DNA of 39,203 nucleotides from a virus (lineage: Duplodnaviria > Caudoviricetes), in the IMG/VR virus record IMGVR_UViG_3300031949_000097, positions 1 to 39,203 of that record; one strand, given 5' to 3'. Both the position numbers and the translations under genes were made by a program. How positions within the stretch are numbered: position 1 is the first letter of the stretch; every line of letters begins with the position of its first letter. Below are positions 8,635 through 16,827 of this stretch, piece after piece. The notes beneath the pieces were generated by a model that saw only the letters and a list, made by a program, of their open reading frames with translations, did not search any database and was not told the DNA's origin.

Positions 8635-8975
8635 GTCGCCAGGTCCCCACGGCTCACCGCCGGGGTGGTTGGCGTCACGCCTGGAGGCGTGGCTGGCTCC
8701 GTCCACCCATACTCGCATCTGCCGCACGCGCGATGAAGCGCTTTCCCCTGGTGCCGGTTGCAGCCGCTGCAATAAGCGATCGAGATCAAGGTCGGCAGCG
8801 GGGGCGGGAAACGGCTCCCGCCGAAACCGTAGTAACAGGCTGGCCACTCAAACACCGTGCCGCACATCGGACAGGTCAGCTCTTGACATTCCTCGATGCG
8901 CCTCCTGAGCAAGCCCCGCTGGTGTGTGTGGATCGTCCGCACGGGACCATCGCCGATCCAGACCGAGATCGACAC
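8631..8975 (-). CDS. Zinc-ribbon hypothetical protein
   Basis: CPMC, CSGC and CGRC; GGAGG SD before GTG 8975. Confidence 0.65.
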   Translation of the reverse strand: MSISVWIGDGPVRTIHTHQRGLLRRRIEECQELTCPMCGTVFEWPACYYGFGGSRFPPPLPTLISIAYCSGCNRHQGKALHRACGRCEYGWTEPATPPGVTPTTPAVSRGDLAT

Positions 8976-9381
8976 TATTCCTCCGGCTCCGGGACCGCCC
9001 ACCAGCAGGCGCAGCCGTCGCGGGTGCCGCGGCGCATGATCAGATGGGGCTTGCCCGGCACCTGCAGGGGCCCGGGTGGGTTGGTCAGGTCGCTCAGCCG
9101 GCGGCCGATGACCTGGCGGATCCCCTCGATGCCGATGCGCGCGAGCACCAGGGGAAGCGTCGGGGCCGCGATCGCCGCCAGCTCGGGGCATGTGAGGCCC
9201 GGATGGTCCCGCACCAGCTGCAGCGCCATCCGCTGATGCTCCCCTAGCTTCACGCTCCCGACGATCGCTTCCGCCGCCCGGCGCGAGGTCGGAGGGTCGG
9301 TCCGCCCTACCAGGTGACGGACGGGCGGCTCGAACAGCGGGCCGGCGCCGCGGACCTCGGCGGGATCGGAAGACTGGCGGC

Positions 9382-9385
<4 letters not shown>
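8975..9385 (-). CDS. Winged-helix DNA-binding protein (RxTDPxTSxxAA type)
   Basis: GRTDPPTSRRAA...HPGLTCPELA...GRRLSDL...W motif set. Confidence 0.7.
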
Positions 9386-11744
<2,359 letters not shown>

Positions 11745-11758
<14 letters not shown>

Positions 11759-12074
11759 TGTGGATTTCCTGCGGGCTGTATTCGCGCTGCCGCACGACCC
11801 TGTATGACCCAGGGGCGATCGTCACCGGGGCGTGTTCCTCGTGCTGCAACGTCGCGCCCGCGGTTCCCACCTTGAGGAAACGCACATCGCCCCGCTCGAG
11901 GAGCATGACGTCCTCGTCGAGCACGGCATGGGCGTGCCCGGTCGCCTCGCCATAGGCCAGCACGATGCGGCCGCGCTCCCGCGGGACCTGCGTGGCCCCC
12001 TTGGAAATCGCTCTGGCACGAACCAACATCACGTCACCCTGGCGGAACTGCTTCGGGCTCTTGCTCTTGGTCAT
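11745..12074 (-). CDS. Conserved His-rich partner of DUF6745-like proteins
   Basis: FRQGDV, LAYGEATGHAH, LQHEEH and YRVVRQREY motifs; GGAGG SD; overlaps the DUF6745-like start. Confidence 0.85.
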
Positions 12075-12325
12075 GTGACCTCCATGGTTGACGTAGCGGG
12101 GACATCCGGGGTGCGCCTCGTCAGTTCCTCGATGTACAGCCGGCAGGAGCCGCAGACGATGCCTTCGATCAGATATTCGACGGTGCGCAGCTGCCCGAGC
12201 AGCAGCGACCGCGAGACCAGCGATGCACCCTTCCGCTGGACGTGCCCGATGATGAGGTCCGCGATCTCCCCCATCTCCGCGGCGCGCACGGCGTGGTCGT
12301 GCCAGCACGGCCCGGAGTGCGTCAT
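12071..12325 (-). CDS. Hypothetical HxxxC...CxxC protein, paralog of 5926..6171
   Basis: ATGA overlaps on both sides; paralogy visible by eye. Confidence 0.8.
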   Translation of the reverse strand: MTHSGPCWHDHAVRAAEMGEIADLIIGHVQRKGASLVSRSLLLGQLRTVEYLIEGIVCGSCRLYIEELTRRTPDVPATSTMEVT

Positions 12326-12486
12326 CCGAGCAGCCCCACGAGGCCGATCCCGAGGGCGAAGCCCGCCAGGAAAACGAAGATGCCGGCGCCTGCAAGGAGC
12401 GTCCAGAAGACCGCGCTCGTCCGGCGCGGCGAGATCAACGCCGGCGGCCGGTAGAAGGCGCGATTCAGCTTCAGGACCTCCGGCAT
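12322..12486 (-). CDS. Small membrane protein (54 aa, not in the ORF track)
   Basis: Manual translation MPEVLKLNRAFYRPPALISPRRTSAVFWTLLAGAGIFVFLAGFALGIGLVGLLG; GAGG SD; ATGA overlap with the next gene. Confidence 0.7.
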   Translation of the reverse strand: MPEVLKLNRAFYRPPALISPRRTSAVFWTLLAGAGIFVFLAGFALGIGLVGLLG

Positions 12487-12489
12487 GCC

Positions 12490-12702
12490 CTATTCCTCAT
12501 TGAAGTCAATGAACGGCTCCACCACTTCCGATGCCTGGACGGTGTCGAGCACGAGGCCCTGGTCGTGCGCCCAGCCGGCCGCCCGGTTCACGGCGAATCC
12601 GATGCTCGTGTCGCGGACATACACGAGGGCCCACGACTGCTCGCTGGCTCCAGCTCCGAACGGGATCGCCTTGGTCGACACGCGGCAGCGGAAGAGTTTC
12701 AC
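12490..12702 (-). CDS. Hypothetical protein, first clear gene of the early operon
   Basis: 70 aa with globular composition; GAGGTG SD 5 nt before GTG. Confidence 0.7.
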   Translation of the reverse strand: MKLFRCRVSTKAIPFGAGASEQSWALVYVRDTSIGFAVNRAAGWAHDQGLVLDTVQASEVVEPFIDFNEE

Positions 12703-13724
12703 GCCGGCACCTCACGGAGCCCTGGATCGATCAGCATGGGCGTGACGGCCCCGGGGCGGTCCGTAGCCCCCGGAGCCGCCTGTCCACTACGAAGCCGGGA
12801 GCGCGGCCGCCTTGGCCCGGCCGCGCCTCGAGGGAACCCCCGGCGGGCCCCAGACGAGAGCAGGTCCGCGTCCTCCCCCGAGGGCGTGCGGAAGGCGCTG
12901 GATCGCAAAGGCGCCCGACCGGGCCGCAACCCCCGGTCCCTGCCCGCCGGCACGACGCCGGCATGGACGAGTGCGAAGCCGCGCCGATGCTGCACGGGAT
13001 CCGGCGCGCGGTCGCCTGCCGTCTCAGGCTGCAGAAGGCCGCGGCCCGGGTAGGGCATCGTAGGGGCCCCGGGCCTGGTGTCCCATCGCCGCCCCTGCAG
13101 CTCCGGCGATGCGGGCTCTTGACCTTCGGACGGTCTAGCCAGCTGAGGAACTCCGGCTGACGTGGTGCGCCGGCCTATTGCCCGCTCTTGGGTTGGGTAT
13201 GGATGAGGCCGAGACGGGCGGCGCCGCGGCGCCGCCCCTGACCCGGGCACTACGGTCGGTTGGATGTGACGGGTATGATGAAGCCGTGACCGCCCGTCGC
13301 AGCTTTGGCTCCCCGTCTGGATGCTCGCGCTTCGAGTGGACCTGGCCGGGGCGCTGCTATCGATCCGGGCGGCGTTGTCCCGTGGGGGGAACCCCGGGAC
13401 GTCCTGCTCATTCGACTTGGAAGGAGGGACGCTCATGGGGGCGGAGCCGTCCCATGGCTTGAGGATCGCAGGCTGGGGGAAACCGGGGGATACGTCGGAC
13501 ACACAATCCGATGCGTCCCCTAATCCACAGGGGTGCGTCGGACTTTTTGGGCGAGGGGTCAGGGCCGGAGCGGGTCCCGTGCTAGACTTCCGCCCCTCTG
13601 GGGCGTGCGCCCATAGCTCAGCTGGATAGAGCGTCGGACTACGGAAACTGCTGGCCTCCAGCGCCGCGAACAATCCGCTCTCCGCGCCTCTTTTTCTCAC
13701 CATGAGGGGCTGAACGCCGGTCAC
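12699..13724 (-). CDS. Possible attP-spanning 341-codon ORF (low-complexity product)
   Basis: GTG overlaps the integrase TGA and has a GAGGTG SD; its TGA overlaps the GTG of 12490..12702; the product is P/R/G/A/S-rich with no recognisable domain. Confidence 0.35.
   Translation of the reverse strand: MTGVQPLMVRKRGAESGLFAALEASSFRSPTLYPAELWAHAPEGRKSSTGPAPALTPRPKSPTHPCGLGDASDCVSDVSPGFPQPAILKPWDGSAPMSVPPSKSNEQDVPGFPPRDNAARIDSSAPARSTRSASIQTGSQSCDGRSRLHHTRHIQPTVVPGSGAAPRRRPSRPHPYPTQERAIGRRTTSAGVPQLARPSEGQEPASPELQGRRWDTRPGAPTMPYPGRGLLQPETAGDRAPDPVQHRRGFALVHAGVVPAGRDRGLRPGRAPLRSSAFRTPSGEDADLLSSGARRGFPRGAAGPRRPRSRLRSGQAAPGATDRPGAVTPMLIDPGLREVPA
12744..13450 (-). ncRNA. Candidate large structured RNA / leader (chain of hairpins)
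   Basis: Back-to-back inverted repeats, e.g. 12801-12826, 12917-12938, 13043-13075, 13084-13111, 13216-13237 (perfect 22-bp palindrome), 13268-13298, 13377-13400; strand inferred from operon direction. Confidence 0.45.
13486..13544. promoter_or_regulatory. Cluster of att-core-like motifs (pseudo-att palindrome plus half site)
   Basis: GGGGATACGTCGGA-cacacaa-TCCGATGCGTCCCC (13486-13520, 7-bp spacer) and GGTGCGTCGGACT (13532-13544), the latter exactly inverted at 13739-13751. Confidence 0.6.
13580..13588 (+). promoter_or_regulatory. Extended -10 promoter for the tRNA half
   Basis: TG-C-TAGACT followed by a GC-rich discriminator, 18 nt upstream of the tRNA 5' end. Confidence 0.6.
13607..13645 (+). 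tRNA. 5' half of tRNA-Arg(ACG), putative attP identity block
   Basis: GCGCCCA-TA-GCTC-AGCTGGATA-GAGC-G-TCGGA-CTACGGA gives acceptor strand, D arm, 5' anticodon stem and loop; the expected TCCGA and T arm are absent; 75 bp from the integrase stop. Confidence 0.88.
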
Positions 13725-14800
13725 TTCTCCACCTCATCAGTCCGACGCACCTTGGGCGGCCCGAAGAAGACGGCCCCCTGCTGGATGAACTCCTCCGACA
13801 GGTGGGCGTAGCGCTGCGTCAGGCTGATGCTCGAGTGGCCCATGTACCGCTGCAGCCGGTAGACGTCGAGCCCGTTCATGATCGCCCAGCTGGCGAAGGT
13901 GTGGCGCAGGTCGTGGAAGTGGACGTCTGTCAGCCCCGCCTTCTTCCGGGCGTGCTCGAAGGCGGTCCGGACGCTCTTCATGCCGCGGCCGTTGTACTCG
14001 AAGACCAGGTCGCCCGGTGGGCCCGGGCGCAGCGACCGCAGGGTCGCGTCCAGGTCGACGTCGATCGGCACGATGCGCTCCCGCCGGCTCTTGGTGTTCT
14101 CGCGGCGGAAGACGAGCACGTGCCGCTCGAGGTCGACGTCGGACCAGCGCAGCGTCAGGAGCTCCGACAGCCGGCCGCCGCAGTGCAGCGCCGCCACGAT
14201 GATCTTCTTCAGGTGCACCGCGGCCGCCAGGATGAGCTTCTTCGCCTCCTCGTCCGACAGGTAGCGGGTGCGACCGGACGATTCCCGGAACTTCAGGACC
14301 TGCTTGACCGGGTTGGGACCGCGGTGATAGCCGCGGGAGATCGCCCAGGTGAAGAACCGCGAGAGCGTGGCGCGCTGCCGGTTGATCGTCGGGCGGCTCA
14401 CACCCTCCGCGATGCGCGCGGCGATCATCGACTCGATTTCCTTGGTGCCGATCTCGGTGATGCGCAGCTCGCCGAGGTGGCGCCCGAGGATGCGCAGGTT
14501 CGACGGCGTGGTCCTCTTGTCGTCGCTGTAGAGCGATCGATACGCCAGGAACTCCTCCGTGACGTCACGGAAGCGCTTTCCGAAGAGGGCCACGCTGAGC
14601 TCGTCTGGGAACATGCGCGGCTCGAGCTGGGGGTCCCGGGCCGGGGATGTCGAGCGTATACGTCGAGAATCCTCGCTGCGCAAGGAGAATCTGGAAACCC
14701 CTCGGCGCCGGCTGTCGGGACGAGGCGGGCCCTGCTGGAGTCCGGCATCGAACAACCGGCGGCGCCGAGGAGTCACATTGGAAAATTGAACGGTGTGCAT
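13721..14800 (-). CDS. int: Tyrosine integrase
   Basis: Catalytic set GGRLSE (R), NTKS (K), HDLRHT (HxxR), MGHS (H), QRYAH (Y); ATG 14800 has a GGAGG SD (alternative ATG 14614). Confidence 0.95.
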   Translation of the reverse strand: MHTVQFSNVTPRRRRLFDAGLQQGPPRPDSRRRGVSRFSLRSEDSRRIRSTSPARDPQLEPRMFPDELSVALFGKRFRDVTEEFLAYRSLYSDDKRTTPSNLRILGRHLGELRITEIGTKEIESMIAARIAEGVSRPTINRQRATLSRFFTWAISRGYHRGPNPVKQVLKFRESSGRTRYLSDEEAKKLILAAAVHLKKIIVAALHCGGRLSELLTLRWSDVDLERHVLVFRRENTKSRRERIVPIDVDLDATLRSLRPGPPGDLVFEYNGRGMKSVRTAFEHARKKAGLTDVHFHDLRHTFASWAIMNGLDVYRLQRYMGHSSISLTQRYAHLSEEFIQQGAVFFGPPKVRRTDEVEK

Positions 14801-14825
14801 CCCACCCTCCAGCAGAGACGCGTGG

Positions 14826-14854
14826 AGTGTGGGGCGTCGGAGTGAGAATGTCAA
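14826..14854 (-). promoter_or_regulatory. Sigma70-type promoter for int
   Basis: TTGACA-N17-CACACT, 25 nt upstream of ATG 14800; the spacer contains the GCGTCGGA motif. Confidence 0.6.
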
Positions 14855-15027
14855 GCACGGAGACAGAGGTTTGGGCTGATTTTACAACCGTGTCAGCGCG
14901 GACACGGGCTGGCGGTTGCCCGGACCCGCGGCCGCCGGCGGCGCCGCATCGCCGGGGCATGGATGACCACGGATCCGGGCCCCCGGGGAGGTGGCCGGGG
15001 CCGCCGGCGCGGGGCGCGCCGACCAGG

Positions 15028-15681
15028 TCAGAAACGCCAGCCGATTGCCGCGCTGGCGCCGTTCGTGTCGATGTCCCGTTTCCCGAAAGCCCGCTCCCTG
15101 GTCGCGTAGACCTTCAGGAAGGCACCCTCCCCTCCCGTGATGATCCCGCCCCGCAGGCTCAGGCTGTGGTCCTGGGCGACGTCGCCGGTCCAGTAGAGGT
15201 ATTGACCCCCGAAGAACGGCCGGAGCTTCGCCTTACCGATGCGCAGCTCGAGGGCGGCGCCAAAGCCCGTCCCGGTCGTCGACTTGCCGTGCTCCGGGTC
15301 GGAGTAGCGGAACTCGACCGCCGGGCCAGCTACCGCGGGGCCCAGCTTGGCGAGGCCCTCGGCCGAGAGCGCGGCCGTGGCGCCGACGCCCTCCGTGTCG
15401 GAGTAGGACCCGCCGGCGCTCAGCTCGATGGGATAGTCTCCGGCCAAGGCTGGAAACGAGACCAAGCACAGGAGCACTGCGGCGATCGCCCAGACGGGCC
15501 GAAATATTTGACCGACGGCCCACCCGACCCAGTAGAACGCCCATCGCATCGGCGCGCGGCGCGCCCTGTAGAGGTTGCCGAGGCCGCACATCGTCCTCTT
15601 CGCGCCGTGCTCGACGCCGCTCGCCATCGCCTGCGGCATCCACTCCCAGGGAACCCTCGTTCCGTTGTCCGTGAAAGTCAT
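15028..15681 (-). CDS. Outer-membrane beta-barrel protein (small, Lom/Ail-like size) with long N-terminal extension
   Basis: Signal-like WAIAAVLLCLVSFPALA-G, alternating amphipathic strands, C-terminal IGWRF beta-signal; AAGGAGG SD. Confidence 0.75.
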   Translation of the reverse strand: MTFTDNGTRVPWEWMPQAMASGVEHGAKRTMCGLGNLYRARRAPMRWAFYWVGWAVGQIFRPVWAIAAVLLCLVSFPALAGDYPIELSAGGSYSDTEGVGATAALSAEGLAKLGPAVAGPAVEFRYSDPEHGKSTTGTGFGAALELRIGKAKLRPFFGGQYLYWTGDVAQDHSLSLRGGIITGGEGAFLKVYATRERAFGKRDIDTNGASAAIGWRF

Positions 15682-15790
15682 GGATCTTCCTCCTTCCGCA
15701 GTTGAACCGGCTTCGTCTTGACCGACTCCACCGACATCTCCAACCTCAGCACCGGACCGTCCATGTACCTGTCCTCCGATCGAATCGGGT

Positions 15791-16138
15791 TCACTTCGCG
15801 GGGATGTATTTGACCTTCCTGAGCCAGACCCCGACCGCGGCCAGGTAGCCGCCCAGCGCGAGGGCGTAGGGCTGGGCCCAGGACAGCCAGCCGCAGGCGC
15901 GGCTGGCTGACGCGATGCACAGCGCCAGGAGGTCCGGATTGGTGACCAGCGCCACGAGGGCGCCGAGGCCGATGAGGACGGCGCCGATCAGGCGCCGGTA
16001 GTTCGCCAGCGCATTGAACGAAAGGACCCGCTTCAGCAGTCCGGCAACCACTTTCTCCTTCATCTTCAGCTCCTTCCGGCGCGCGACCCGCCGCGCCCAA
16101 GCCTTCGCGAATAAACCCCAGAGCACCGGGATAGGCAT
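15791..16138 (-). CDS. Membrane protein, holin-like
   Basis: Two hydrophobic segments (LIGAVLIGLGALVALV; YALALGGYLAAVGVWL) with a basic C-terminus, in the lysis region. Confidence 0.6.
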   Translation of the reverse strand: MPIPVLWGLFAKAWARRVARRKELKMKEKVVAGLLKRVLSFNALANYRRLIGAVLIGLGALVALVTNPDLLALCIASASRACGWLSWAQPYALALGGYLAAVGVWLRKVKYIPAK

Positions 16139-16827
16139 CAGGCCGCCCGGCTCCTTCGATGAGTCCTGGCCATCGCGGCCCAGCGCATCTCCTCCAGGCC
16201 CCCCACCTCGATCAGCCGCACGGCCTCCTTGCAGATCCCGAGGCGTCTGCCGATCGCCTCCAGCGTCATCCGCCTCCGGCCACGGACGCCGTATCGCCCC
16301 GTGATGACGTACCGGGTCCGCGAGTCCAGAGTCAGCAGCAGCTCCCTCACCTGCTCCGCGGCGTCACGCCCCTCGAGCGCGGCCAACGGCGAAGCGAAGA
16401 CCTGCTGCTCCAGCCGCTCCTCCAGCGGCACGAGAGTCCCGGCGGCGCCGCGGTCCTCGAGTGGAAGAGCCTGTGGCCGACACCCCGCGCCGACTTTCCT
16501 CTGCGGGATGTGGACCGGCGCCATGAGCTCGCCCACGAACACCTGGATCGACCGCCTCACCCAGGCGATGGCATAGGACATGAACAGGACCCCGCGGCCG
16601 GGATCGAATCGCTTCATGGCCTCGAATAGGCCGAGGACGCCATGGGCGACCAGGTCCTCCATGTCCAGGCCGCTCCACCGGTAGCGCGCCGCCGCCTGGA
16701 TCACCAGGGGGACGTTGCAGAGAATGAGCCGATGCAGGGCGTCGGTCTCGCCCGCCTGCGCGCGCGCCACGAGCTCGAGCTGCTCGCGCGGGCTGACTCG
16801 CGGCATCTTCCCCGGGTAGCGCCTCAT
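16138..16827 (-). CDS. Sigma-70 family RNA polymerase sigma factor (RpoD/RpoS/RpoH-like, shortened region 3)
   Basis: AQAGETDALHRLILCNVPLV...RY..SGLDMEDLVAHGVLGLFEAMKRFDPGRG..FMSYA..WVR (region 2); TLEAIGRRLGICKEAVRLIE (region 4). Confidence 0.92.
   Translation of the reverse strand: MRRYPGKMPRVSPREQLELVARAQAGETDALHRLILCNVPLVIQAAARYRWSGLDMEDLVAHGVLGLFEAMKRFDPGRGVLFMSYAIAWVRRSIQVFVGELMAPVHIPQRKVGAGCRPQALPLEDRGAAGTLVPLEERLEQQVFASPLAALEGRDAAEQVRELLLTLDSRTRYVITGRYGVRGRRRMTLEAIGRRLGICKEAVRLIEVGGLEEMRWAAMARTHRRSRAA

Follow-up and report, generated by a model that had tools for sequence, protein, structure and literature searches.

Gene organization of the locus

The stretch of DNA analysed here (hereafter, the window) is the whole 39,203-bp virus record IMGVR_UViG_3300031949_000097 (Duplodnaviria; Caudoviricetes), and our subject is the switch between lysis and lysogeny that appears to be encoded around its integrase gene, int, and its phage attachment site, attP (Table 1). 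The window carries the siphovirus-type gene set of a 39-kb soil phage in the order terminase, portal, HK97-type head, non-contractile tail, endolysin, integrase, early genes and, last, HNH, and all 53 of the genes called with our own gene caller are located on the minus strand. The evidence is comparative sequence analysis with a single prophage, and the activity of the promoters P1 and P2 and the recombination events are known as predictions. On this basis we propose, with a probability of roughly 0.6, a repressor-free switch in which inversion and integration driven by the integrase (Int) would disconnect the sole predicted early promoter, and in which a leader RNA would gate read-through by attenuation coupled to translation.

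A first-pass annotation of the same sequence had noted an integrase and an attP in a genome with neither a CI/Cro-like gene nor a divergent early operon, and these statements stand. We could not find any match to the XRE, S24, RHH or Cro families in the 504 stop-to-stop open reading frames (ORFs) of at least 40 amino acids that the six-frame repressor scan of the window comprised (504/504 searched; Pfam, E 0.05), or in 84 selected window ORFs (PHROGs). The contigs of run X1, which may be the source, show no differences to 11502–15190 and, because they extend from base 1 to 39198, it is unlikely that a repressor gene was lost off the ends of the window. The winged-helix gene, which the annotation itself had named as a possible repressor, does model as a winged helix (MarR/Fur-like; structure model pLDDT 68, best E 0.016), yet it sits 4.2 kb downstream of att in the middle of the early operon and does not appear to be placed to act as a lysogenic repressor.

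The layout is kept in related phages, as the annotation had suggested checking. A motif scan specific to the integrase clade yielded 11 loci, eight of which are phages of the same one-strand plan (G001–G005 and G007–G009); L251, which is unrelated, and L243 and L250, two-integrase elements without the leader module described below, were left out of the count. In what follows, the nine viral genomes are the window and these eight relatives, and the ten genomes include in addition the one prophage found, the Acidobacteriota prophage G363, which is present in one of the 119 genomes of its host class (Int 60% identical). HTH_3 was absent from three of the four relatives with terminal repeats, S24 was found in none of the five relatives searched, and one XRE match came from a Pfam scan that covered 144 of the 210 genes called in four relatives and six G363 ORFs. 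In G002, G004 and G363, the XRE genes are found towards the end of the early operon and share its strand.

Table 1. Features of the switch region and early operon, in window coordinates
Feature	Position	Strand	Remarks
P1, sigma70-type promoter TTGACA-17-CACACT	14826..14854	-	predicted sole early promoter
Site X	14835..14848	-	within the P1 spacer: 7-bp overlap 14848-14842 and core-type half-site for Int, 14841-14835
Leader segment A	14815-14807 (14798..14815)	-	overlaps the ribosome site of leader start codon 14800
B..B' hairpin RNA, about 77 nt	14696..14774	-	encloses A' (14740-14732), then CCCGCC; predicted two-state RNA
P2, promoter-like site for int alone	14655..14683	-	putative; inside the predicted invertible segment
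Tyrosine integrase (int)	13721..14614	-	Pfam Phage_integrase, E 2.6e-28; 297 amino acids, ATG at 14614
Site Y	13687..13707		inverted copy of the X overlap at 13700-13694, after int; degenerate arms
Relay ORF, 341 codons	12699..13724	-	crosses attP; GTGA overlap with int stop and with first early start
attP	13607..13645	+	5' half of tRNA-Arg(ACG); predicted overlap: anticodon loop, 13639-13645
Extended -10 promoter carried by the phage and serving the rebuilt tRNA	13580..13588	+	identical in G003
Perfect core-type palindrome	13493..13513		further half-site at 13536; likely accessory Int sites
C-rich tract in relay ORF	13418..13495	-	C 36 / G 16; candidate Rho loading site
First early gene	12490..12702	-	70 amino acids, no family; heads the early/replication operon
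Winged-helix protein	8975..9385	-	within the early operon; in 5/9 viral genomes and G363

Promoters and the predicted invertible segment

The promoter that the first-pass annotation had assigned to int, TTGACA-N17-CACACT at 14854–14826, is present and is here called P1; a promoter-like site closer to int, P2, had been missed. No TTGACA other than that of P1 occurs on the genome's coding strand, and in all nine viral genomes the equivalent site heads the leader module and lies across att from the early genes. P2-like sites, with 6–8 of the 12 consensus positions, are recognized 52–95 nucleotides (nt) before int in all ten genomes. A strict promoter scan of 11500–16000 listed no site, and from attP to 12702 there is one weak promoter-like site (8/12, near 13084; shuffle mean 0.3), which agrees with the earlier remark that no clear minus-strand promoter lies between attP and the early genes. 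In the eight viral relatives no promoter-like site was found between att and the first early gene.

The spacer between the -35 and -10 elements of P1 contains site X, the half-site of which matches the tRNA anticodon-stem arm at eight of nine positions, and a good core-type half-site is found in the P1 spacer of seven of the ten genomes. Sites X and Y bound a segment of 1.15 kb that is predicted to be invertible. An inverted partner of the 7-mer exists in all four viral genomes in which the leader module precedes int (the window, G003, G004 and G007), where the numbers of partners expected by chance are 0.007, 0.054, 0.007 and 0.131. The X and Y sites of the window and G003 occupy aligned positions and differ by two compensatory changes, and in G007 the match between X and Y is 8–9 nt long. 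Because the arms of these sites match the core arms of att, Int probably catalyses the inversion between X and Y.

The prophage G363 is integrated at tRNA-Arg, and its leader-int-att cassette is reversed relative to the early genes. Its P1 is split between the two end contigs, one carrying the -35 half and the other the -10 half; next to both halves stands one and the same 7-mer, which, together with its arm, occurs exactly twice in the 4.2-Mb genome. Un-inverting G363 in silico yields TTGACA-17-GATACT and a perfect core-type palindrome, and G004 represents the un-inverted form. In both G004 and G363, the inversion site is the palindrome at the position equivalent to 13493–13513; in the window the 7-mer of this palindrome has no exact partner and matches the -10 region of P1 at five of seven positions. 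The orientation is un-inverted in the viral contigs and inverted in the prophage G363, and the two have never been seen in one phage. A prophage of the G363 type is predicted to be silenced in the inverted state, and integration alone would, in this sub-type, leave the early genes downstream of the host tRNA promoter, in the sense direction. When the window is inverted in silico, P1 is destroyed and the RNA module and int come to point away from the tRNA promoter, which would then read both in the sense direction. The annotation had supposed that recombination at attP parts the early operon from its promoter; the relay described below is indeed cut there, but the second site, in the P1 spacer, and the inverted prophage had escaped it. 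Its claim that integration points the host tRNA promoter antisense into int as a new effect is not sustained, as the phage already carries the same promoter, pointing at the 3' end of int.

In an alternative explanation, P1 is separated from the early operon by integration and nothing else, site Y would be a relic, and the leader RNA would do no more than tune the output of int or the leader. This would suit the position of attP between P1 and the early genes, inside the relay ORF, the weak arms of Y in the window, and the five relatives with the leader module after int, which appear to work without an inverted partner and in which integration alone would cut the relay. However, the exact match of the 7-mers has been retained, with compensatory changes relative to G003, and the only prophage seen is inverted, and we regard integration alone as unlikely to be the switch. 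We give very little credence to the idea that the inversion of G363 is an accident and that the early genes have a non-sigma70 promoter of their own, for example one served by a phage sigma factor. There is only one such prophage, consensus scans miss other promoter types, and the window does encode a sigma70-family factor (16138–16827, minus strand, inside the lysis cassette). This factor, however, has no homologue among the called genes of the relatives, the structural and early genes of G363 look intact, and four independent phages keep matched X–Y pairs.

Repression of P1 by a protein is also improbable in our estimate. The repressor would be Int bound at the half-site in the P1 spacer (KplE1-like), the winged-helix protein, or a host repressor such as LexA, which acts as a repressor in the tectivirus GIL01. 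Good half-sites in seven genomes and the MarR/Fur-like model are consistent with such repression, and autorepression by an integrase is known (PMC2951348). However, the winged-helix gene lies on the downstream side of att and could not be found in four of the nine viral genomes, the P1 spacers show no common operator in the alignment, and the matched overlaps and the split promoter would be left unexplained. Binding of Int at P1 could be added to the repressor-free switch.

Leader RNA

All ten genomes carry the leader module, headed in nine of them by a TTGACA promoter. Its order is A, which covers the ribosome site of the leader start codon, followed by B, A', CCCGCC and B'. The module stands before int in the window, G003, G004 and G007, and after int in G001, G002, G005, G008 and G009. 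In each of the ten genomes the cognate segments A and A' can form a helix of 9–15 bp that is specific to the genome: non-cognate combinations reach at most 8 bp, except for the nearly identical pair of the window and G003. The pairing exceeds that of shuffled sequences in all nine of the genomes tested (p ≤ 0.015), and none of the 63 sites outside the family with the same promoter pattern exceeds 6 bp. When folding of the nascent RNA was modelled, the probability of A:A' was at least 0.93 in all ten genomes, and the full-length RNA is close to balance, with B:B' winning in four and A:A' in six of the ten. Alignments of the leader RNA by MAFFT were too poor for a covariance model, and pairing was judged by the matrix of cognate and non-cognate combinations. 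From these models, the leader RNA is predicted to gate read-through from P1.

An RNA immunity of the P4/C4 type, in which a processed B..B' RNA of 61–78 nt blocks the leader in trans and causes termination, with recombination serving only for storage, seems very unlikely to account for the whole. About half of A' is unpaired in the isolated B..B' piece, and the size of the RNA, its upstream target on the same strand and the genome-specific pairing fit the logic described for P4 CI (PMC4825925). Against this, there was no match to the Rfam C4-type model in the window at E 10 or in three relatives at E 1 (Rfam matches in the leader region were at chance level only), and no second downstream target of the seqC type was found as a consistent perfect match of at least 9 nt in nine genomes, a test that covers perfect matches and not imperfect targets. 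Moreover, the module of G363 has lost its -35, and a recombination site inside a promoter would be left unexplained.

Predicted translational relay across attP

Leader and int share one reading frame in the window, giving a fusion of 359 amino acids, and the relay ORF continues from the int stop across attP to the start of the first early gene. A link by one ORF, as in the window, arose in three of 400 shuffles. Chains of coupled open frames lead from the leader to the first early gene across att in all nine viral genomes. In G004 and G363, the +1 frame of the leader is open through int with no stops, compared with 3–9 stops in the eight other genomes, and none of 104 background windows is open in the +1 frame; the leader of G007 uses the +2 frame, in which 12 of 104 background windows are open. 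The un-inverted model of G363, checked after the relay had been predicted, contains a leader frame of 457 codons that passes without interruption through int (in the +1 frame, with 0 stops), attP and the second site, and is coupled by ATGA to an ORF of 133 codons, itself coupled by ATGA to an early gene.

The 341-codon relay ORF has no Pfam or PHROG match. The possibility that it and the leader ORFs encode conserved proteins was rejected: they form no family, and their frame relative to int varies between genomes. As the relay ORFs share no protein family, translation itself is suggested to matter; as the coupled frames cross attP, integration would cut the chain. The first-pass idea that the early operon is fed by read-through from the promoter before int is supported by the constant position of P1 and by the coupled frames, but it had not included the switch-like leader RNA. 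An intrinsic terminator was not found.

Integrase and attachment site

The start of the integrase was set at ATG 14614 from its best 26 matches (at least 55% identity), which measure 289–318 amino acids; by this length, the enzyme belongs to a clade without the N-terminal arm-binding domain. A longer sister integrase has an extra N-terminal segment and no leader module. The integrase C-termini are variable and charged (alignment A1), with no ssrA-like end recognized by eye, and the highest identity to a cultured phage is only 35%.

The attP of the window is of the 5'-half type, which is also present in G003, G005 (tRNA-Leu) and G007; within the phage family, the 5' and 3' types alternate. The tRNA promoter of the G363 host has the same -10 as the phage-borne promoter at 13580–13588. 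A tRNA matching attP was found in ten of 401 sampled Acidobacteriota genomes, and all ten have the loop CTACGAA, compared with CTACGGA in the window. Integrase matches in this 401-genome sample are confined to four genomes of one class (119 genomes). The att loop differs from the host-like tRNA at one base in the window (13644) and at three bases in G001, G005 and G008; these mismatches always lie away from the carried tRNA half, and the integrase clade may tolerate one-sided homology. Islands carrying a 5' tRNA fragment are known but rare, 159 of 3919 in the Islander account (PMC4383910), and the window shows no essential difference from what is described there, its attP likewise bringing the 5' part of the tRNA. 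The tRNA-dependent lysogeny described in PMC10865867 does not apply, since the tRNA is rebuilt and the phage has no full tRNA of its own (none was found in the window).

Words of the core half-site type occur 19 times in the window genome, six of them within 13493–14841. On the minus strand at 13120–13147, there is a degenerate tRNA-like copy consisting of the D-arm and the 3' anticodon-stem arm, with the loop missing; it was noticed in the window only, is complementary to the attP half at 19 of 22 positions, and might base-pair with the anti-tRNA part of the transcript to which it belongs. The motif GGC(T/C)TCATC occurs twice after att (about 13260–13290 and 13190–13215, minus strand), with similar words recognized by eye in G002, G003 and G363, and could be an antitermination or promoter element.

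Proposed switch

In the lytic state of the proposed switch, P1 would fire and a ribosome would load on segment A before A' is made. Ribosomes would then be relayed through the leader and int and through the 341-codon ORF, over attP, into the first early gene, and this translation would prevent termination, presumably by Rho, in the 2.1-kb leader. If loading fails, A' would pair with A and hide the ribosome site, or B:B' would form and the transcript would stop; short Int, made from P2, could then accumulate. To lock the lysogenic state, Int would recombine X with the inverted Y, parting the -35 from the -10 and reorienting the leader RNA and int so that they point away from the early genes, an arrangement that is observed in G363 and expected for the window. 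Integration at tRNA-Arg would cut the relay ORF, with the phage promoter and the 5' half rebuilding the tRNA. In an inverted prophage of the window type, transcription from the host tRNA promoter would enter the RNA module and int in the sense direction. For induction, Int would be needed to reverse both the inversion and the integration. Immunity to superinfection, if there is any, might be conferred by A' RNA in trans.

Several observations weigh against this proposal. With respect to inversion, the Y arms of the window fit the core consensus poorly, the half-site in the P1 spacer is poor in three of the ten genomes, and no inverted joint was found among the X1 contigs listed, contigs being prone to drop rare forms. 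The five relatives with the leader after int have no register-matched inverted partner, so that inversion is not universal. Only a single prophage is available, from one of 119 genomes of the class, and its flipped module has a non-consensus -35, which makes the supply of RNA in the lysogen uncertain. The base at 13644 separates the attP loop from the host-like tRNA. When one mismatch in the -35 is allowed, 11 windows in the scanned stretches of host contigs reach 8 + 8 bp of leader-type pairing. Concerning the relay, shuffled sequences give some relay path in 0.09–0.385 of cases per genome, the end points were picked after inspection, and the leader of G003 stops inside int, at an ATGA overlap. 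The C-rich tract is clear in only four of the ten genomes and is borderline and not significant in the window (control fraction 0.099).

A fuller version, which we hold tentatively and at somewhat less than even odds, extends the proposal to a family of autonomous temperate Acidobacteriota phages: an arm-less Int would both integrate the phage and flip its own cassette through the P1 spacer, and a two-state leader RNA that counts the loading of ribosomes (and possibly co-infecting genomes in trans) would act as the trigger and give immunity, with no repressor protein. If the proposal is true, the memory of lysogeny would reside in DNA arrangement and RNA folding, and searches for repressors would misclassify such soil phages. 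The promoter-splitting inversion and the integration together would form a 2-kb unit with one protein that is amenable to plasmid tests in E. coli without culture of the host.

Relatives and neighbouring genes

Sister integrases without the leader module are present in G430, G355, G132, G337 and L370; G436 is available only as a 2-kb locus. A single-protein scan gave no relatives, and alignment-driven scans of viral, genome and metagenome collections, which used generic motifs, returned among the matches listed only distant integrases (at most 42% identity). The tRNA-half pattern had no matches in viral contigs, and no new family members came from the promoter-pattern, winged-helix or C-terminal motif scans; the alignment of the tail protein was too divergent to serve as a query.

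The relatives G001, G005, G007 and G008 have in common one opposite-strand gene after the tape measure gene. In the two that were scanned it encodes a PDZ-domain protein (L253, 10571–11146, and L260, 10681–11418, both plus strand), possibly a moron expressed in the lysogen. G001 has two small genes inserted between int and P1 (from L252:19311 into L253) that look HicB/HicA-like by eye; the one scanned had no Pfam match. Tandem two-integrase elements exist in the same host class (L266 in G006, L250 in G010, L352 and L355), and G006, G010 and L352, which also carry a short set of head-tail genes, may be satellites. In the window itself, 10337–11758 (minus strand) encodes a DUF6745 protein with a long repeat of four-residue units, adjoined by a small partner gene at 11745–12074. 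Just upstream of P1, at 15028–15681 (minus strand), there is a predicted outer-membrane beta-barrel-like gene of family F27, which is common to three relatives; the F27-type gene of G009 has a weak Phage_OMP match.

Comparison with known systems

Textbook lysogeny relies on a repressor protein. In the mycobacteriophages BPs, Brujita and Charlie, as described in PMC3694055, and in the window alike, attP lies within a reading frame and Int is simple, without an arm-binding domain; in the window, as in these phages, recombination would be the decision event and Int would act in both directions without a recombination directionality factor. BPs is described as needing rep, cro, divergent promoters, attP inside rep and degradation tags (PMC3694055). 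Unlike BPs, the window has genes on one strand only, no rep or cro was found in it, the frame interrupted by attP is the relay ORF, and a second pair of sites splits the promoter. The window thus falls outside the definition of the BPs type, as it has no rep, cro or divergent unit, and the difference that the first-pass annotation had drawn, namely that no repressor is visible here, is borne out by an attP-spanning ORF without a Pfam or PHROG match. BPs, the simplest recombination-gated switch known, keeps a repressor, and a simple recombination-based ancestral switch is discussed in the same account (PMC3694055); the window, if the proposal is true, would be a natural example of such a switch in which the repressor is absent.

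The systems of P4 CI and C4 share with the window premature termination, which is predicted here, and a specificity that resides in the paired sequence. P4 CI (PMC4825925) and C4 of P1/P7 (PMC2864571) are also described as working without a protein repressor, through an RNA of the early leader that is complementary to an upstream target on the same strand. Unlike these systems, the window has no Rfam match and no second downstream target, its RNA is coupled to a recombination that splits the promoter, and the phage is an autonomous siphovirus of Acidobacteriota. The resemblance to P4/C4 RNA control is only partial.

Invertible promoters are familiar from fimS, which is switched by FimBE. As proposed for the window, the recombinase of the Hin system flips a promoter segment between inverted sites and so turns genes on or off (PMC8987985). 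However, unlike Hin and fimS, the crossover in the window would be in the spacer between -35 and -10, the enzyme would be a tRNA-targeting integrase whose own gene lies within the flipped segment, and lysis versus lysogeny would be the output. In KplE1, Int-binding sites likewise overlap the promoter upstream of intS, but in the account given for it, the promoter is overlapped by att itself and is repressed by Int (PMC2951348), whereas in the window the core-type site is distinct from att, has a 7-bp overlap of its own and possesses an inverted partner. Autoregulation of the KplE1 type is possible as an added layer. No published switch of this inversion-based or repressor-less kind was found in a literature search that left subscription papers and supplements outside; as a whole the proposed switch would be new, although each of its parts has a precedent.

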